The notes beneath the pieces were generated by a model. That model had not been told where the DNA came from and made no database searches. It worked only from the letters and a program-made list of their open reading frames with translations. Shown piece by piece: positions 3,733 through 43,940 of a stretch of DNA of 44,573 nucleotides. Every line of letters starts with the position of its first letter. Within the stretch, counting starts at the first letter, position 1. The translations under genes were made by a program, and so were the position numbers. The stretch comes from an archaeon. GTDB lineage: Archaea; Aenigmatarchaeota; Aenigmatarchaeia; GW2011-AR5. The stretch lies in contig JACPVU010000018.1 in the NCBI GenBank assembly GCA_016191585.1, positions 1 through 44,573 of the forward strand. Reading direction: 5' to 3'.

Positions 3733-3918
3733 TTAGAAAGGCCCTGGTATTATATGGCGGATGAAATAGAACCAGAAAAGCGCCATGACAACAAAGCTTA
3801 TCACGCCAAAAGTTACCTTAATCAGTTTATGGTCAAGGTCGTTCCATTCCTCCTTTGATATGGAGAATAATGTTTTCATAACGCCCAAGGCGGTCTGTAT
3901 CTTTGGCATAAATATCAC
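3733..3918 (-). CDS. small membrane protein (hypothetical)
   Basis: 61-aa ORF with a C-terminal TM helix (VISFVVMALFWFYFI). It competes with the overlapping + strand ORF 3785..4003. Confidence 0.3.
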   Translation of the reverse strand: MIFMPKIQTALGVMKTLFSISKEEWNDLDHKLIKVTFGVISFVVMALFWFYFIRHIIPGPF

Positions 3919-21072: not shown

Positions 21073-21162
21073 TTTTATCTCGACAAAGTCCTGCTTTTAT
21101 AATTATATGCAGCCCTATATAAAAACCACACCCATAAACCGTCGATTTTATTAATTATGAGT

Positions 21163-21253
21163 ATGATCATCTGCGTGAAGGGTATCGTCTATCGATGATA
21201 CCCTTAGCTAGAGCTACTATCAAAGAGATAGTAGCTCTCACGCAGATGATCAT
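21163..21253. repeat. perfect nested inverted repeats (Y-shaped: 16-bp closing stem plus 8-bp and 12-bp hairpins), function unknown
   Basis: ATGATCATCTGCGTGA (21163-21178) pairs with TCACGCAGATGATCAT (21238-21253). Inside are AGGGTATC/GATACCCT and AGAGCTACTATC/GATAGTAGCTCT. No stem has a mismatch. Confidence 0.85.
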
Positions 21254-21448
21254 CATACGTTAAGTTAATACAATCTAATGTGATCCAAATAAAGAATCGG
21301 GATATATAAATTTGGATCACGGTATAGCGCACAAGGAAATTATATACCGTTTATTTCCTTGTAGCACTATAAACCAGCCATTTATTTTAACACGACTATG
21401 AACGTTAGTAAAAATTAATAGTTAGCACAGCAATATGTTACCAGTAAT

Positions 21449-24400
21449 GTGATGCCAATGACTTATGAATACGAATACGACGAGCAGAACCAGAAGATAA
21501 GGATAAACTGCCTCGGCGCTGTACAGGGTTCTAACATAGAGGATTTTCCTGTCTGCATGGCAAAGACGATAGACAACTTGATGGAACTGAAAAAGGTCGC
21601 AAAGATCGTTCTTGTCGACGTACGTGAGTATGAATATGACGTGAGCGAAGCAAGAATGCTGCTTGAGATAGCAAACGCCATTGAGTACATAATAAAGGAA
21701 AAGCTCGTCAGCATGGAAAATATTGTCCTGCCTGGCTGTGAAATGGAATCGCCGGAAAGGTATTCATTTCTGCAGAGATTTCTCAACGACATAAAATACG
21801 ATCCTATCGACGCCTACAAAAAACTCATCCGTGAAATGAGAAAGCAGAAGGTCCGCAGCGAGAGGGAAACTGGCATCGCGAAGGATTGTCATCTTCACTA
21901 CATAAACAATTCACTTATACCGATAAAAACCGCGCTGGATAAATGCAAGATGATACAGCTGGCTGTTCCGCAGCTGGCAGAACACAAGAACCGCTCGCTG
22001 TACAGAAAAATATTTCATCCGACAATAAGGCCGAATTTCATCTATACAAAATACGTATCGCTCCCGCCTCCGCATTCCGAGCTTATTGAAAGATATACTG
22101 TCGGGGAAATGAACGTTGAAATATACAGCGTGCCTGGACAGGTCAGAAAATTCTATCTGGCTATACCGCCTGAGTTCAAGCTCAACGAGACAGAATACAC
22201 GCTGCTGGATACGGCCAGAAGGTATATAGGCCACCACGAGCCGAGGGAAATAGAACTGGCCGAGCCGGAAAGGATAAGAGAAAATCTCTTTAGAATAGGT
22301 GTTGACATAATACGCGACCTTGCTTCGTCACAAAACTATGCAATTTCTGAGTCGAGGATCGAGAAGCTTTCGAAGATACTTGCACGTTACACAGCAGGAC
22401 TTGGCGTGATTGATTTAATACTGCAGGATGAAAACATACAGGACATCGTGATAAACGCGCCTATAGGGTCGTCGCCTGCGTTCATCTTTCACGCAAACCA
22501 CGAGGAATGCGAGACAAATATTGTACCGAGCATAGAAGACGCAGAAACGTGGGCAACGAGATTCCGACTATATTCAGGGCGTCCGTTAGATGAGGCCAAC
22601 CCTGTACTGGATACAGAATTGATAGTGCCAGGAGGCAGGGCTCGTGTCGCTGCTGTAACAAGGACATTGTCGCCTGACGGGCTGGCATTTGCTTTCCGCA
22701 GGCACAGGGACAAGCCGTGGACTTTCCCGCTTTTCATAAAAACGAAGATGATAGACCCGCTCGCAGCAGGGCTTATGTGGTTCCTTATTGACGGTGCAAG
22801 GACCCTGCTCATTGCCGGTACAAGGTCGAGTGGAAAATCCTCATTCTTGGGTGCGTGCATGGTGCAACTGATGCCGAAAATAAGGATAATCAGTACTGAG
22901 GACAGCGTTGCGGGTGATTGTGAAATATTCTATGAGAATCACGGAAAAATAGAAAAATCCACTGTAGGCAATCTTATAGACAGCACCATAGAGAAATATG
23001 GTTGTGACCATGACTTTGACCGGGAGGTTGCCAAGAAAAATCCTGAAAATATAAGGGTATTTTCCATGGACAATAAAGGCAAAATAAAACTATCTAACGT
23101 AAGTTCTTTCATAAGACATAAAACAAAAAAGGACTTATTTGAAATAACTACGCGAACAGGAAGAAAAATAAAGGTAACAGGAGACCACTCTTTGTTTCAT
23201 CTGAATAAAGAAGGAAAAATAGCACCGGTCAAATGCTGCGACCTGAAAATAAATGATTACCTTGCAGTTCCGAGGATTTTGCCGTTTGAAAACAGTCTGG
23301 TCGAATCGCTAGATATTCTTGACTATATAGAAAATGATAAGGATGTTTACCTGCAAGGCGATGGTGTCAGGGATTTTGTAAGACATAACAGGAACGAAAT
23401 AAGGAAACTGGGGTCAAAATCGAATCTGGAGCACTGGACACGCGGCATATTGCCACTGAAAATCACCAGAAAAATAAATTCTCAGCATGGGCTGGAAAAA
23501 GACGTGCAGATAAAATTCGGGAAACATGCCAGACCTTTGCCACGTATAATAATACTCGACAAAGAAATGCTTGAGTTCTTCGGCTTGTGGCTCGCTGACG
23601 GATGTTACGATAAGAATGAAGTCATAATATCCGTAGTTGACGAAGATTCGAGAAATGTTGTGAGAAATATTGCCGCATATCTTGAAATAAAAGTTACCAT
23701 GCATACAGACGGCATATCACTGATACTGCACTCACGTACGCTTAAGCATATGATGAAATGCCTCGGATTTGACGGAAATGCATATACAAAAGAAATTCCA
23801 AAATGGGTCTTCAATCTGTCAAAGAATCAGATAGCACACTTCATGAGGGGCATCTTCAGCGGTGACGGATACCTCACGAACAACGAAGCTGCCATAAATC
23901 TTGTCTCTCAAGGCATGATAAAAGATATCCAGACAATGCTTCTCATGTTTGGCATTACGAGCAGAATAAACAGGATAGGAAAAGATATGACATATTCCTG
24001 CAGGATAAGCCAGCTTGATTCCATAAGAAAATTCGCTTCCATAGGATTTCTCCAGCAATGGAGATTTCAAAAGCTTTCTGAGATGTGCAAAAAAATCTCC
24101 ACCCACGACTCCCCGGATATCGTGCCTTTTTCGAAGGAATTCAAGCTAAAAATACGGGAATCCTATGAAAGTTTTAACTATCACGACTACATTGTTCGCG
24201 GCAATAACATAGGAAGAAACAAATTATTGACAATGACAAAGTCCGTGAATGCACCATCATTAGCTGAAAACCTTTGCCTACTTGCCGAATCGGACATATT
24301 CTGGGATCAGATACGGGAAATAAGACGCATGGAAAACCCTGAAGAATGGGTTTATGATTTTTCTGTGCCTGAATGCGAGAATTTTGTATGTGAAAACATA

Positions 24401-25198
24401 ATTGCTCACAATACACTGGAACTGCCTTTCGACCAGCTGCGCGAGTTGGGATACAACATAGAAAGGCTGAAGTCGCGGTCAGTAATTACGCACGTCGAAA
24501 CAGAGCTGCCAGCAGAAGAGGCGCTGAGAACAGCTCTGCGATTAGGTGACAGCGCGCTGATTGTAGGTGAAATAAGAAGCAAGGAAGCGCTTGCGCTGTA
24601 TGAAGCCATGAGAATAGGCGCCCTGGCTAATATGGTAGCAGGAACAATACACGGAGATTCTGCATACGGAGTTTTTGACCGTGTGGTGAACGACCTTGGC
24701 GTGACTCCGACAAGCTTCAAGGCAACTGACATTGTTCTTGTTGCGAACATGCTGCGTTCGCCTGAAGGCCTGCACGCTTTCAGAAGGGTCGTCGAGATAA
24801 CAGAAGTCAGAAAACACTGGAAGCACGACCCAGCAGAAGAAAACGGCTTCGTTAACTTGTTCGAATATTCTGCAAGGGAAGACATACTCAAGCCGAGCAA
24901 GACGCTCCTGATGGGGGAATCGCAGGTGCTCAATGATATATCGATGCGTATCCGCGAATGGAAGGGAAACTGGAACGCTGTATGGAACAACATACGATTA
25001 AGGTCAAGGATATTGCAGGCAATTGTAGATTATTCTGTCATAAAGAACAGACCTGGTCTTTTGGAAGCTGATTTCGTAGTTGCGTCTAATTCTATGTTCC
25101 ATATAATCAGCTCTGAAGTAAAGGAAGAAGTAGGGGACTTTGACAACGAAGAAATTTTCGAGCGCTGGAACACGTGGATGAAGAAGCAGACGCAGTAA
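21449..25198 (+). CDS. type IV pilus/archaellum-class (FlaI/PilB/VirB11-like) secretion ATPase, interrupted by an intein
   Basis: Walker A 'AGTRSSGKSS'. 'RIISTED|...|TLELPF' restores the conserved IEDT.EL box after intein removal. Walker B 'ALIVGEIR' and His box 'GTIHGDS' are present. The spliced size is about 746 aa. Confidence 0.9.
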   Translation: MMPMTYEYEYDEQNQKIRINCLGAVQGSNIEDFPVCMAKTIDNLMELKKVAKIVLVDVREYEYDVSEARMLLEIANAIEYIIKEKLVSMENIVLPGCEMESPERYSFLQRFLNDIKYDPIDAYKKLIREMRKQKVRSERETGIAKDCHLHYINNSLIPIKTALDKCKMIQLAVPQLAEHKNRSLYRKIFHPTIRPNFIYTKYVSLPPPHSELIERYTVGEMNVEIYSVPGQVRKFYLAIPPEFKLNETEYTLLDTARRYIGHHEPREIELAEPERIRENLFRIGVDIIRDLASSQNYAISESRIEKLSKILARYTAGLGVIDLILQDENIQDIVINAPIGSSPAFIFHANHEECETNIVPSIEDAETWATRFRLYSGRPLDEANPVLDTELIVPGGRARVAAVTRTLSPDGLAFAFRRHRDKPWTFPLFIKTKMIDPLAAGLMWFLIDGARTLLIAGTRSSGKSSFLGACMVQLMPKIRIISTEDSVAGDCEIFYENHGKIEKSTVGNLIDSTIEKYGCDHDFDREVAKKNPENIRVFSMDNKGKIKLSNVSSFIRHKTKKDLFEITTRTGRKIKVTGDHSLFHLNKEGKIAPVKCCDLKINDYLAVPRILPFENSLVESLDILDYIENDKDVYLQGDGVRDFVRHNRNEIRKLGSKSNLEHWTRGILPLKITRKINSQHGLEKDVQIKFGKHARPLPRIIILDKEMLEFFGLWLADGCYDKNEVIISVVDEDSRNVVRNIAAYLEIKVTMHTDGISLILHSRTLKHMMKCLGFDGNAYTKEIPKWVFNLSKNQIAHFMRGIFSGDGYLTNNEAAINLVSQGMIKDIQTMLLMFGITSRINRIGKDMTYSCRISQLDSIRKFASIGFLQQWRFQKLSEMCKKISTHDSPDIVPFSKEFKLKIRESYESFNYHDYIVRGNNIGRNKLLTMTKSVNAPSLAENLCLLAESDIFWDQIREIRRMENPEEWVYDFSVPECENFVCENIIAHNTLELPFDQLRELGYNIERLKSRSVITHVETELPAEEALRTALRLGDSALIVGEIRSKEALALYEAMRIGALANMVAGTIHGDSAYGVFDRVVNDLGVTPTSFKATDIVLVANMLRSPEGLHAFRRVVEITEVRKHWKHDPAEENGFVNLFEYSAREDILKPSKTLLMGESQVLNDISMRIREWKGNWNAVWNNIRLRSRILQAIVDYSVIKNRPGLLEADFVVASNSMFHIISSEVKEEVGDFDNEEIFERWNTWMKKQTQ
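22904..24412 (+). mobile_element. 503-aa intein with a LAGLIDADG homing-endonuclease domain
   Basis: It starts 'SVAGDCEIF' (block A, Ser1), has block B 'VTGDHSLF', LAGLIDADG motifs 'FGLWLADGCY' (about 23580-23610) and 'RGIFSGDGYL' (about 23845-23875), and ends 'VYDFSV...ENIIAHN' followed by the +1 Thr. Confidence 0.9.
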
Positions 25199-25420: not shown

Positions 25421-27376
25421 TTACGCTGATGTTACAGACGATATCAGCGGGCCGAACATTGTCAGCGTCATCAGAAGCGATACGGTAAACACGACGAAGC
25501 CGATGATGAGTGTGTAGCCTGTCACGTTTGCCCTTCCTATCGGGTCTTCCCCGTTTTCTATGGTGTTTATGAACATCGATATGATGAAAGACGATTCTAT
25601 CATGTAGATCGCAACGACGAAGATGAACTGGAACGGCGATATGGGTATCTGGCTGAATTCCGAGATCATCGGTATGCTCGTGCCAAGCGCAGGTGCCTGG
25701 TCTCCTAGCTGTTTCAGTATCCGGATTATGATTATTGCAAGCGTTGCCACTGTGCCGGATATCATCGGTGTCAGGAAGAATCCCTGGAACTTTAGCGAGC
25801 CGACAACCTCATTCAGCGAGTCCCTGACTTCTTCCTGGGTTGTATGCAAATTTTTGAGATACTTGGATATCGAGAGCATGCTGTTTGACGCGACAACAAT
25901 TCCCTTCTTTGATGATTCTACAACTGTTCGCATTACAGATTTTATCAGTTTTGACGGATAGTAGCGGACAGCTCCGTATTTCTCCTCGAAAAAAGCCTGC
26001 TGGAAAGTGAATCCGAGGAGTTTCATGTTGTTTATTGCCTTTGAAAACAGTTCCTTTATCTTCAGGGTCTTTATCCTTGCGAGCGTGTTTTCCATTGCCA
26101 TTTCTATTGGCCTTCCGCTTGATACCTGGTTGCCTAACTGGAACAAAGCTTCTGCAAACTCGCCCTCGATCTGCATTGTCTCGCTGCGGAGCTTCATCTT
26201 CTGGCTCGACGTGAGTATGAAATACAGCGCAAATCCCAGGGCAAGTCCAAAAGTTATGACGATTGCAGGTGTTATTCCCTCGAAGTTTTTGCTGTCTATA
26301 GATTCATTAGAATAAAGAAACAGACCAAACAAAATAATTAAAATGCCGATTATTGCTGCAATAGGCCACGCCCTGACGAATTTTTTCTTGAACCTGAACC
26401 TGCCTTTTGGCGGGACATTGGGGTTCTCGCTTATGTCGACGTTGCTGAACGTTGCGGGCCGGACAGAAAGTATGTTCATGATTATGAAGTACAGCATGAA
26501 AGGCAGAATTATGTCGTATCCTATAAAGAGTACGACCGCGTTGACGTGCAGGAAAACAGCTATTATAGGGAACAGCACGAGCCCCATGACAGGCAGGATT
26601 ATTCCAAGTGCGTGGACAACTGTAACAGGCAGTCTCAAACTCTGGTTGAAATGCTTTGCATCTTCCCTGTTGCCTTCAAGGATGATATTCACTGCTTCCT
26701 CTAACATATTTAATCTCTTTTCGCCGACCTGCTTCATCGACGATGTCATCAGCTGGACTGACTCAACGAAATGGCGGTTAGCGGACCATTTCTTTGTATA
26801 ATCAGTCAGGGCTTCTTCCATGGAGAGATAGTTGCCGACCTCTACGTCCCAGAGCATCTTCTTGAGCTCGTAGCCTATGCTGCCTGTTATGTTCTCGGCA
26901 GCGAACTTGACAGCGCCTTCCAGGCTTGGGTTGTTCCTCATGTAGATTACTGAATACAGGATGAAAGTCACTATGTCAGAACCAACCATCATCGTGTAGG
27001 TCGTTTTCAGTTTTATCGGGTAATAGTAGATGTAGTAAGTCAGTATCATGCCTATCAGAAGGAGCAGCATTCCGTATCCGAAGAAGCCTAAGAACACCAG
27101 CAGAAAAGTCGGTATGAGAACCATTATCAAAAACAAGAACGTGAATGAGACGATGCCTGTAGGTGTAGCCTTCAGGTGCGTGAAATCTATCGCGTCCTGA
27201 AGTCTTTTTCCGGATTTCTTGTCCGGCTTCACCCTGATTATCTTCTCGGAGAAATTGCAGGCTTTTTCGTAGACGGTTATCGGCAAAGACGTGAGCCGCT
27301 CTTCTTCTAGAAATATCTTGTACTCCCTGGAAATGAGCTTCTTTATCTCGGCTGTCCGCTTTTTTTTGTCCATCAA
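25421..27376 (-). CDS. polytopic FlaJ/TadC/PilC-like pilus platform membrane protein
   Basis: 651 aa. The alternation of cytoplasmic helical domains and TM bundles is typical of the T2SS-F/FlaJ family. It lies adjacent to the secretion ATPase. Confidence 0.75.
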   Translation of the reverse strand: MMDKKKRTAEIKKLISREYKIFLEEERLTSLPITVYEKACNFSEKIIRVKPDKKSGKRLQDAIDFTHLKATPTGIVSFTFLFLIMVLIPTFLLVFLGFFGYGMLLLLIGMILTYYIYYYPIKLKTTYTMMVGSDIVTFILYSVIYMRNNPSLEGAVKFAAENITGSIGYELKKMLWDVEVGNYLSMEEALTDYTKKWSANRHFVESVQLMTSSMKQVGEKRLNMLEEAVNIILEGNREDAKHFNQSLRLPVTVVHALGIILPVMGLVLFPIIAVFLHVNAVVLFIGYDIILPFMLYFIIMNILSVRPATFSNVDISENPNVPPKGRFRFKKKFVRAWPIAAIIGILIILFGLFLYSNESIDSKNFEGITPAIVITFGLALGFALYFILTSSQKMKLRSETMQIEGEFAEALFQLGNQVSSGRPIEMAMENTLARIKTLKIKELFSKAINNMKLLGFTFQQAFFEEKYGAVRYYPSKLIKSVMRTVVESSKKGIVVASNSMLSISKYLKNLHTTQEEVRDSLNEVVGSLKFQGFFLTPMISGTVATLAIIIIRILKQLGDQAPALGTSIPMISEFSQIPISPFQFIFVVAIYMIESSFIISMFINTIENGEDPIGRANVTGYTLIIGFVVFTVSLLMTLTMFGPLISSVTSA

Positions 27377-27672
27377 TACTAATTGTCACGCCTCTTAAAT
27401 AATGTTTTTTCCTGAGGTAATGTGGATGTAATTGTATGTTCAGTTAATTTTGGAACATGTTATGCTGAACATACAGTATAGCGGGTTCAAAATAAAAGTT
27501 CCGATATTATTCGAACCCACTATAAGCGATCTAGATGTTAGTCGGTTGTTATTTTCATGTGTCTGCAGGTGTCTATAGCAATGTCAGAAACGGCAAACAC
27601 TCTGTCGATTCTATTTCAATTGTCAATATTGTCATACTCATACGAAATTTCGTGATTTTATGATACGACTTT

Positions 27673-27855
27673 GATTGAATTCCATATTCGTATAATGATA
27701 GTCAACGTAGACATATACCTCATAGAACTTTGTTCTGTGGGGTCTTGGAAAGCTTTGCTTTCCAAAGACATCAAGGGACGTATATGTCAGCCAGGAGCGT
27801 TATCAAAAATATAATGCTCCTCACGTCGACTATCATATTTTAATGGAATTCAATC
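27673..27855. repeat. 183-nt multi-tier inverted-repeat element with 3 internal hairpins, function unknown
   Basis: Tiers: GATTGAATTCCAT/ATGGAATTCAATC (13 bp), ATGATAGTCAACGT/ACGTCGACTATCAT (14 bp, 1 mismatch) and GACATATAC/GTATATGTC (9 bp). Inner hairpins: AGAAC/GTTCT, GTCTTGGAAAGC/GCTTTCCAAAGAC and AGGAGCGTTAT/ATAATGCTCCT. Confidence 0.85.
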
Positions 27856-27861
27856 TACTAC

Positions 27862-27869
27862 TTTAAAAA
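27862..27869 (+). promoter_or_regulatory. candidate TATA box (TTTAAAAA) of the pilin-like operon
   Basis: It lies 29-36 nt upstream of the ATG at 27898, which has no SD motif, consistent with a leaderless transcript. It also directly follows the 3' arm of the structured element. Confidence 0.35.
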
Positions 27870-27897
27870 TCGGGGGCCACATATACTATTGATAACT

Positions 27898-28053
27898 ATG
27901 GACGAGATGTGGCTGATAATAATGATGTTCTTCATGGTGCTCATATTCGTGTTCATGGTGGCTGTAACTCAGGGATGGATAGATATCGCAAAGCCGCAGA
28001 TAGCCATAGGCGCTGCTATCCTTGTTAAGAATAAAAGAACCAGGAAGCGATGA
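27898..28053 (+). CDS. 51-aa single-TM mini-protein with a polybasic C-terminus (below the ORF-track cutoff)
   Basis: Translates to MDEMWLIIMMFFMVLIFVFMVAVTQGWIDIAKPQIAIGAAILVKNKRTRKR. The stop lies 1 nt before the next ATG. Confidence 0.5.
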   Translation: MDEMWLIIMMFFMVLIFVFMVAVTQGWIDIAKPQIAIGAAILVKNKRTRKR

Positions 28054-30136: not shown

Positions 30137-30545
30137 CTTTACAAAAAACACAACTGGCTATTTTCTTTGTTCATAAATGACGCTTAGTCAATTACTGCCC
30201 ATAAATTGAATGAACGCATTAAGACGAGCATCAATCTTTCGTTGCTTTTTTGGCCCAATTCTGCAAAAATATCAGGTTCATGTTTAGTTGTCGAAATTCA
30301 TCTCATAGCTGAATCCAGAAGCGTTCTTTCGATACCTATAACGCATTTATTTAGCCCGGAACAATATGATATATAGCATCTGACATAAATATTCAGACAT
30401 ATTATGATGTCAGTGCTATATACAGAGACATTATTTTTGTACGAAAAATAATGTCATCTGTTATAGTAAGGCAATCAGAATCCCGTTGTATGAATTGCAT
30501 ATAGCAATAAAATAATGCCGGGGTTGTCTTATTGCTGTACTAGAA

Positions 30546-43190: not shown

Positions 43191-43319
43191 TTATGTACAG
43201 TATTATAAATACGTTTAACAGTTGTCAAGGACCACCGTATTTATACTGTGGCTTGTTGAGACATATGTATCCTTGGTCATCCTGCATTCCACTTTCAACC
43301 ACTGTTTTGAAACAGTGGA

Positions 43320-43940
43320 ATGCAAGATTTCAATACGTTAATAAAAACCCGGATACAAGTCTTATACATGAATCCCAATTTTCTGAACATAAGAACGAAA
43401 AAATACAGCCAGCAGGTGAGGCTTCTCAACTTTCTGATAAGACTCAATATATTCGCGATACCCTTGTACGTAATACTTGTTCTTGGACTGACACTGCCGT
43501 GGCTGCAGAGCACTGTAACGGAAATAACTTATTATCTACTGAATGCAGCAGGAATGCATCCTTCTGTGAGCGGGTTTCTGATATCGATACCAATACAGGA
43601 CGGAACGTGGGCAGCTGCAATAACGTGGGACTGCACGGCTTGGAAGAGCATGCTAGCATTCTTCGCATTGGTCATGGCAACCGACTATGAACTGAGAAAA
43701 AAACGGAACGGACTTGCAGTTTTCATACCGCTGATATTTGCAGTGAACATAGTAAGGATATTCTTCATGTTCTTCTATGTGAAGACTTTCGACCTTGCAA
43801 ACTATTCCTTTGTCCATACTGTTGTCTGGAGCTGGGGAATGATAATAGTTATTCTTGTTTTCTGGATAGCGTGGCTGAAGTTAATGACAAAAAGAAGCCG
43901 CAAAAAGAGTAGAAGATACCATCAACTTAATGGGCATTAG
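43320..43940 (+). CDS. small exosortase/archaeosortase-family protein
   Basis: Conserved Cys ('ITWDCTAWKSML'), Arg ('VNIVRIFF') and His ('FVHTVVWSWG') lie in successive TM segments. The likely start is the ATG at 43368. Confidence 0.65.
   Translation: MQDFNTLIKTRIQVLYMNPNFLNIRTKKYSQQVRLLNFLIRLNIFAIPLYVILVLGLTLPWLQSTVTEITYYLLNAAGMHPSVSGFLISIPIQDGTWAAAITWDCTAWKSMLAFFALVMATDYELRKKRNGLAVFIPLIFAVNIVRIFFMFFYVKTFDLANYSFVHTVVWSWGMIIVILVFWIAWLKLMTKRSRKKSRRYHQLNGH

Follow-up and report, generated by a model that had tools for sequence, protein, structure and literature searches.

Is the large inverted repeat beside the promoter of a pilin-like operon in an Aenigmarchaeota genome a regulatory structure of that locus, or is it something that landed there? 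The sequence analyzed here (the window) is a complete 44.5-kb contig (44,573 nt) of an Aenigmarchaeota (DPANN) MAG, and the repeat lies in its type IV pilus-like locus. At NCBI, the platform protein of the window has an identical entry, HYZ41_01130 [archaeon]; the homologues of this protein that a search returned were nearly all labelled Aenigmarchaeota.

The spacer between the platform gene and the pilin-like operon

The genes and conserved upstream regions around the spacer are as follows.

21449-25198, + strand: secretion ATPase gene (type II/IV), intein-containing
25421-27373, - strand: T2SSF-like platform gene
27374-27432, - strand: conserved upstream region of the platform gene, with TATA-like TTATTTAA on the minus strand
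27862-27899, + strand: conserved leader and putative core promoter of the pilin-like operon of small proteins, with TTTAAAAA at 27862
from 27900, + strand: run of small hydrophobic proteins (pilin-like operon), ATG at 27900

The spacer was compared with loci fetched from related genomes, which carry the labels L001, L002 and so on. The close relatives L001-L004 have a platform protein 90% identical to that of the window. Their spacer is about 213 nt long versus about 526 nt in the window; the two flanks agree at 95-96% identity, with unrelated sequence between them. By BLAST, 27374-27432 is about 95% identical to L001-L004, and the 27862-27899 region has 96% identity over 28 nt to L001. Judging from sequence, the former probably acts as the promoter of the platform gene and the latter as that of the pilin-like operon. 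As a side observation, the ATPase gene is split by an intein that includes a homing-endonuclease domain of the LAGLIDADG type (Intein_splicing, 3.6e-27; LAGLIDADG_3, 1.2e-13), and the 90% relatives have this intein too (1244 aa).

A first-pass annotation had described the spacer as a non-coding region filled with nested inverted repeats, including a 183-nt multi-tier element that abuts the operon promoter. All of its repeats and its palindrome were found again.

27433-27443 / 27465-27475: perfect 11-bp hairpin
27477-27491 / 27510-27524: hairpin with 15-nt arms at 87%, whose ends TAGCGGGTTC..GAACCCACTA are flanked by TA on both sides
27642-27653: 12-nt palindrome ACGAAATTTCGT
27673-27685 / 27843-27855: outermost closing arms, 13 bp, perfect
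27695-27708 / 27823-27836: second closing arms, 14 nt at 93%
27710-27721 / 27777-27788: third closing arms, 12 nt at 92%
about 27719-27741, 27743-27767 and 27793-27821: inner hairpins

The hairpins at 27433-27475 and 27477-27524 have z-scores of -4.4 and -4.1 against shuffles. The first starts exactly at the end of the similarity to the close relative. The second has ends (TA-TAGC...CTA-TA) like those of the TA-targeting family B units described below, which is a resemblance only. No copies of the two hairpins (27433-27524) were found by BLAST in about 0.9 Mb of related loci, and a BLAST search of 27390-27672 and 30137-30545 against all fetched loci gave no repeat copies besides the conserved flanks. 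About 210 nt of the window (27433 to about 27650), including both hairpins, are absent from the closest relative. The stretch 27525-27672 is no more structured than shuffles (z -0.8 and -0.5), and about 10 perfect 12-nt palindromes are expected by chance in 44.5 kb (my own estimate, L x 4^-6). Thus, the spacer is non-coding and does carry repeats, but the word "filled" overstates its middle third, where structure is at the chance level.

The element at 27673-27855 is a different matter. As RNA, it folds with -78.7 kcal/mol on the + strand (z -10.9) and -75.6 kcal/mol on the - strand (z -10.7), while shuffles fold with about -34 kcal/mol. With DNA folding parameters, z is -10.25. Its multi-tier anatomy next to the operon promoter is therefore real, and either strand folds far beyond shuffles with RNA as well as DNA parameters, at z of about -10 to -11. 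A sliding 180-nt fold scan of the whole window gave just three outliers (21100-21390, 27661-27870, and 30361-30540), all of which are intergenic and inside the pilus-like locus. The 3′ arm of the element stops at 27855, 6 nt ahead of TTTAAAAA (27862), and its coding content is a single overlapping 47-aa TTG ORF.

The 183-nt element as a MITE copy

I conclude, with a probability of about 0.88, that 27673-27855 is a non-autonomous DNA transposon (MITE) inserted at this locus, an ordinary mobile insertion probably mobilized by an IS6-like DDE transposase. The features of the copy are as follows.

27664-27672: left copy of the target-site duplication, TACGACTTT, 8/9 identical to 27856-27864
27673-27855, + strand: the 183-nt MITE copy itself (family "A1"), whose orientation is set by the asymmetric inner loops ATTCGT / ATTTTA
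27673-27685: left terminal inverted repeat GATTGAATTCCAT (P1, tier 1), 13/13 complementary to 27843-27855
27843-27855: right terminal inverted repeat ATGGAATTCAATC (P1)
27856-27864: right copy of the target-site duplication, TACTACTTT, whose last 3 nt overlap the TATA box

The family has the element limits GATTG...CAATC. A covariance model made from other copies scores 27673-27855 at 109 bits (E 1.4e-21).

In L001-L004, TACTACTTT is present once, uninterrupted by a MITE, at the homologous site. This empty site was read by hand; a MAFFT alignment of the spacer with the relatives misaligned its centre. The window reads ...ATACGACTTT, the MITE and TACTACTTTAAAAATCGG (in a longer reading, ...TTTTATGATACGACTTT, the 183-nt element and TACTACTTTAAAAATCGGGGGCC). 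L001 reads ...ATACTACTT, element B between two TA dinucleotides and AAAAATCGG (in a longer reading, ...TTTTTATAATACTACTT, a 94-nt element between two TA dinucleotides and AAAAATCGGGAGCC). Thus, the relative holds the target once and without the MITE, and it has a different TA-targeting two-hairpin element inside the TATA box itself.

The first-pass annotation had by implication tied the repeat to this locus and promoter as a structure of their own, and had named many copies elsewhere as the mark of a generic mobile palindrome. Such copies were looked for and found: dozens, with target duplications, lie elsewhere in related genomes. The element is also absent from the orthologous site in the closest relative.

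Number and distribution of the copies

In a BLAST search against the loci of relatives, the element termini recurred at two other intergenic sites in L001, and the interiors of those two copies match 21160-21259 of the window (94% over 100 nt). Both conserved ends were then combined into a pattern, with which one genome per GTDB species and also metagenomes were scanned. The genome scan gave about 30 paired matches in the MAG GCA_964373255.1 alone, further matches in three other Aenigmarchaeota MAGs, and scattered single bacterial matches without family features. Many further copies came from the metagenome scan, and a scan of viral contigs gave one chance match without family features. The covariance-model search collected 81 copies (54 unique sequences). 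Copies of the family are 114-228 nt long. The number of distinct insertions recovered is at least 65, and loci of GCA_964373255.1 account for 37 of these; two copies are in the window.

Over 65 distinct insertions, the flanking 9-mers are identical at 9/9 positions in 27 cases, at 8/9 in 6 and at 7/9 in 4, whereas random 9-mers at equal spacing match at 9/9 in 1/5000. Several other insertions are flanked by what reads as an 8-bp duplication with a one-base offset. The copies are mostly intergenic: the overlap with ORFs of 120 aa or more is at most 15% for 27/37 copies but for just 16% of random windows. The neighbouring genes are found at unrelated loci and include those for ThrRS, ELP3, and SRP54. 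Many copies lie within a few nucleotides of stop codons (median 24.5 nt). An association of the family with promoters was considered and rejected, as a gene start lies beside 38 copy flanks and a gene end beside 40. The dozens of intergenic copies in related Aenigmarchaeota thus indicate an ordinary insertion rather than a regulator built for the pilus-like locus.

Some individual copies deserve mention. Several are located at contig ends, and such repeats break assemblies. One of them, L005 1-206 (the same as L057), is a 213-nt-class copy in the 69% relative that is truncated where the contig stops; 51 nt separate it from the platform gene downstream. This is an independent insertion beside the same gene. 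The copy L041 4932-5063 adjoins SRP54. Here, ATGGAATTCAATC gives an in-frame ATG and the longest ORF starts with MEFNH inside the element, so that a start codon supplied by the MITE is a likely source of mis-called start codons.

A candidate parent insertion sequence

Single-end matches led to an insertion sequence (IS) of about 820 bp. Its left end (IRL), GATTGAATTCCATTAACGTATGAT, is 23/24 identical to the consensus end of the family, GATTGAATTCCATTAAAGTATGAT. Of the 24-nt ends of the window copy, the left one matches this IRL at 20/24 positions and the right one (reverse-complemented) at 22/24. The analysis recovered seven IS loci. Six (L106, L088, L070, L132, L133, and L138) have GATTGAATTCCATTAACGTATGAT or a close variant as IRL, while the seventh, L135, represents a second lineage; L136 is a second contig with the same IS as L135. 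The IS coordinates are as follows.

L106 3508-4336
L133 833-1654
L132 1-830
L138 550-1374
L088 78-901
L135 from 2117

The transposase encoded by the IS is about 263-281 aa long and has a CxxC...CxxC zinc finger at its N terminus. Its DDE domain matches Pfam DDE_Tnp_IS240 with 40.5 bits (cutoff 27), and the score against NCBIfam transpos_IS6 is 70.5 bits, below the cutoff of 125. In all five copies read at their 5′ region (L106, L070, L088, L132, and L133), a -1 shift is needed at a conserved A_AAT_TTT heptamer inside the finger, which suggests that the frameshift may be programmed. Of the four complete IS copies, L138 alone shows a duplication, a perfect one of 9 bp (ACGGATTGT). Homologues of the transposase are mostly found on contigs of about 1 kb, the usual sign of assembly-breaking repeats.

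The autonomous IS was not found in the window contig or in the MITE-rich MAG GCA_964373255.1; all IS copies come from other MAGs or metagenomes. Therefore, the mobilizing enzyme is linked to the element by end similarity only, and the IS6-like transposase is the probable rather than the observed partner.

The second lineage bears on the other strong fold of the window. At 21144-21275 on the - strand, there is a second copy of the family with another terminal-repeat subfamily. The covariance model scores it at 105 bits (E 1e-21), and this copy was outside the training set. Its arms match the L135-type IS at 22/24 positions of IRL and 19/24 of IRR. It is thus a cognate MITE of another IS lineage and not merely a decayed copy. 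A likeness in design between 27673-27855 and 21163-21253 had been pointed out earlier; the likeness is real and reflects homology within one family. From their ends, the MITE subfamilies appear to be matched to IS lineages, each core-bearing set of terminal repeats apparently to its own IS6-like transposase lineage.

A covarying three-way-junction core

The layout of the family was deduced by comparing 35 unique copies (the window copy and 34 others). The 13-bp terminal repeats (P1) are followed by an asymmetric loop (ATTCGTATG / ACTTTA), the 14-bp P2 and a three-way junction, A-P3-AGCT-P4-C, which is closed by P2 and has 12-bp hairpins. In the window copy, the interior is arranged as follows.

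27695-27708: 5′ arm of P2 (tier 2), ATGATAGTCAACGT, paired with 27823-27836
27710-27721: 5′ arm of P3 (tier 3), paired with 27777-27788; the P3 loop holds a nested module
27722-27776: nested two-hairpin module inside P3 (hairpins at about 27719-27741 and 27743-27767)
27793-27821: P4 hairpin; the linker before it is AGCC, versus AGCT in the consensus of the family

Thus, the three tiers of the first-pass annotation are P1, P2, and a split P3, and its three inner hairpins are the nested module and P4. In the cmsearch alignment, the P3 loop of the window copy contains 53 inserted nucleotides, and the nested module is missing from 131-nt copies. The 213-nt copy of L022/L005 has a related module (TGGAAAGC..GCTTTCCA and a second hairpin) in P3 in reverse order. 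The size classes result from hairpins added in loops: in P4 for the 161-nt class and in P3 for the 213-nt copies and the 183-nt window copy. Relative to the outer loops, the inner module is found in either orientation (L001, L007, L031, and L061).

In an alignment of 16 sequences, 97.9% of the pair cells are Watson-Crick or G:U versus 20-41% when the partners are slid, and both sides have changed in 29/51 pairs. The changes are unevenly distributed. Within P1, 9/13 pairs never vary and none has changed on both sides, whereas P2 covaries between genomes (5 pairs changed on both sides) and every pair of P3 and P4 covaries. Moreover, the core ..CGACGT-A-P3-AGCT-P4-C-ACGTCG.. is found under at least four different terminal-repeat sets. 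Besides the set of A1, these include GGCTCTGTTGAAA (subfamily A2), GGTTGTTTCCATT, and GCTTCTTAGAAA. The A2 copies share the same three-way-junction core and have 8-bp target duplications.

L031 1980-2112, MITE subfamily A2
L029 5548-5680, MITE subfamily A2
L051 430-562, MITE subfamily A2
L036 136-268, MITE subfamily A2
L009 6158-6290, MITE subfamily A2
L002 7135-7267, MITE subfamily A2

That covariation preserves the interior even where the terminal repeats are unrelated is not predicted by simple MITE decay and is a hint that the fold is under selection. A tentative extension, which I consider doubtful but worth stating, is that the unit under selection is the three-way-junction core and not the terminal repeats, either because the core is needed for mobilization or because it is a structure exapted by the host. 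If so, the core might be a DNA or RNA module required for the mobilization of very short elements, for example by bending about 130 bp to bring the two ends into a single transposase complex. Or it might be a host-exapted intergenic structure such as an RNA 3′-end stabilizer. In both cases, the family would represent a structure-dependent class of archaeal MITEs growing through the insertion of hairpin modules. Among the features described here, the covarying core alone could repay experimental work.

Other repeats in the window and its relatives

The element found in the TATA box of L001 belongs to family B. Family B is an element of about 94 nt with two hairpins (TAGCTCTACAGGT.. and GCAAACCCAC..), each unit being about 45 nt. 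Its sites are as follows.

L001 9830-9925, reverse strand
L108 6117-6215
L112 about 3770-3865

Family B duplicates TA at three independent sites, namely the L001 TATA box and the MITE-A copies of L108 and L112. At the insertion points in L108 and L112, intact copies read ACTT-TA-ATGG and TTT-TA-ATG. To judge from these sites, family B is itself mobile. A solo hairpin of the family B type, TATAGCGCACAAGGAAAT..ATTTCCTTGTAGCACTATA, is located at 21323-21373 of the window and has 90% identity over 51 nt to the hairpin inserted in the L112 MITE copy. A general TATAGC...GCTATA hairpin motif was tried and rejected: TATAGC occurs 14 times versus 14.5 times in shuffles, with 2 strict hairpins.

The remaining repeats are listed as observations. 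Window 21276-21338, consisting of the hairpin GTGATCCAAAT..ATTTGGATCAC and its flank, is 90% identical over 63 nt to L022 1418-1479; since this match lies in another genome, the segment is another small repeated hairpin. Window 30361-30540, inside the operon, has several hairpins, some of which are TA-flanked with TAGC..GCTA ends (30372-30422 and 30500-30539). L002-L004 have a family-A2 MITE (the L002 7135-7267 copy) in a nearby intergenic spacer of the same operon, and window 30340-30374 matches L002 7068-7102, about 30 nt from that MITE. A further repeat family, AGTATCTCCGAAAGT...ACTTTCGGAGATACT, is represented by L040 4117-4213, L056 2089-2179, L012 1921-2044, and L051 2831-2951; it has the same layout of a stem and two hairpins with unrelated sequence, and gives weak covariance-model matches. 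An isolated hairpin with 15-nt arms (93% complementary) at 43279-43328 of the window reaches 17 bits (E 0.1) in the covariance-model search and, given such a weak match, is probably unrelated to the family.

Proposed history and effect at the locus

The following history is proposed. The MITE would have inserted between two divergent core promoters of the pilus-like locus, duplicating the 9-bp TACTACTTT. Its 13-bp terminal repeats were probably bound in trans by the DDE transposase of the IS6-like IS of about 820 bp, which shares nearly the same left end and the 9-bp duplication (visible in one complete copy). The copy carries the two-hairpin module nested in its P3 loop. The duplication kept the TATA box and the 9 nt before it intact; all sequence further upstream was moved 192 bp away. 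The spacer gives the impression of a landing zone where insertions are tolerated.

The core promoter is intact, as the target duplication restores the 9 nt that precede the TATA box. Both conserved promoter regions lie downstream of the element, which is therefore probably not transcribed. A recent, tolerated insertion is the best-supported explanation, and its effect at the locus is most likely neutral or mild.

The strongest rival is that the element came by transposition but has since taken on a cis effect on the divergent promoters, perhaps by serving as a spacer or insulator, a protein-binding palindrome, or a cruciform that changes the topology near the TATA box. The 6-nt distance to the TATA box, the family copy just upstream of the platform gene in the 69%-identical L005, the other hairpin element at the same promoter in the 90%-identical relative, and the maintenance of the fold by covariation all speak for such an exaptation. 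However, the empty site in the closest relative means that the insertion is recent and not conserved here, the family has no bias toward gene starts, and the target duplication restored the core promoter. I regard exaptation at this locus as unlikely.

Slightly less likely still is that the three-way-junction core is a functional structured RNA, or a cargo that stabilizes or terminates RNA 3′ ends, and that the terminal repeats are only its vehicle. The pairing statistics of the core, its occurrence under several terminal-repeat sets, and the closeness of many copies to stop codons, which could allow co-transcription, would fit this. The mismatch spectrum does not. It had been noted that a G:T pair and an A:C mismatch in the stems leave the strand ambiguous, and this holds for the whole family: over 54 unique copies, stem mismatches are G:T in 30 cases and A:C in 25. 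Such symmetry fits a double-stranded DNA palindrome and not an RNA selected on one strand; a strand-specific RNA was rejected as unsupported on this ground. The inner module also occurs in both orientations, the window copy is probably untranscribed, and the arms of palindromes can homogenize at the DNA level without any RNA function. Rfam gave no match at the gathering threshold in the window (in E-value mode, only a chance RsaJ match with E 0.45), and a tRNA search found nothing.

A regulatory RNA or DNA structure specific to the pilus locus, as implied by the first-pass annotation, is very improbable: the strong fold does adjoin a promoter and a similar element lies across the locus, but dozens of copies are found at unrelated loci (ThrRS, ELP3, and SRP54), the orthologous site is empty, and the similar element is a family member of another subfamily. 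A REP/BIME palindrome handled by RAYT or an IS200/IS605-derived palindromic element (PATE), which are likewise hairpin-rich intergenic repeats, can practically be dismissed, since these classes have no terminal inverted repeats or target duplications, both of which are present here, and the element ends match a DDE-type IS and not a Y1 partner.

Significance and comparison with known systems

For annotation, the mobile-insertion reading means that the three strongest folds of the window would be transposon debris and not riboswitches, small RNAs, or pilus regulators. A high-copy MITE family is documented in Aenigmarchaeota together with its likely parent IS; this parent is IS6-like and has a zinc finger as well as a conserved -1 frameshift site. 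Copies of the first family in turn host a second hairpin element, which targets TA. These repeats mark promoter-proximal spacers as tolerated insertion zones.

Prokaryotic MITEs are exemplified by SM1-SM4 of Sulfolobus, the Correia elements of Neisseria, and the enterobacterial ERIC elements. By every defining feature tested, the 183-nt element is a MITE. The family resembles MITEs in being small (130-215 nt) and non-coding with terminal repeats, target duplications, many intergenic copies, and strong fold-back, in its presence or absence at orthologous sites, and in sharing its ends with an autonomous IS. Unlike MITEs in general, it has a three-way-junction interior that is kept by compensatory changes and is common to subfamilies with unrelated ends; its copies grow by hairpin modules in loops and are the targets of a second hairpin element. 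MITEs are known to be dense in some DPANN genomes (PMC11602168). In the literature, no named description of this MITE family was found.

The relation of the family and its parent to IS6 is partial. The candidate parent is similar to IS6/IS26 in its size of about 820 bp and in its single DDE transposase matching DDE_Tnp_IS240. IS6-family elements typically have an 8-bp duplication and a 14-bp repeat beginning with GG, and only two IS6 MITEs, of 227 and 336 bp, are listed (PMC7986276). Subfamily A2 shows both of these IS6 features: its ends, GGCTCTGTTGAAA, are close to the IS15-delta/IS26 repeat, GGCACTGTTGCAAA (PMC5328509), and its duplications are 8 bp. In contrast, the A1 ends, including those of the window copy, start with GATTG and not GG, and the A1 duplications are mostly 9 bp. 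The parent transposase also differs in its CxxC zinc finger, its conserved -1 slippery heptamer, and its score below the NCBIfam IS6 cutoff; an N-terminal zinc finger in IS6 has been reported only for clostridial clades (PMC7986276).

The family resembles REP/BIME sequences in being short intergenic palindromes with many copies, often near gene ends, but it differs from them in having terminal repeats and target duplications. REPs have neither of these and depend on Y1 (RAYT) enzymes. Other MITEs target TA and are of the IS630/Tc1-mariner type (Stowaway-like). Family B is like these in its TA-TAGC..GCTA-TA ends and in the duplication of TA on insertion, and unlike them in its units of about 45 nt, its element length of about 94 nt, and its few copies.
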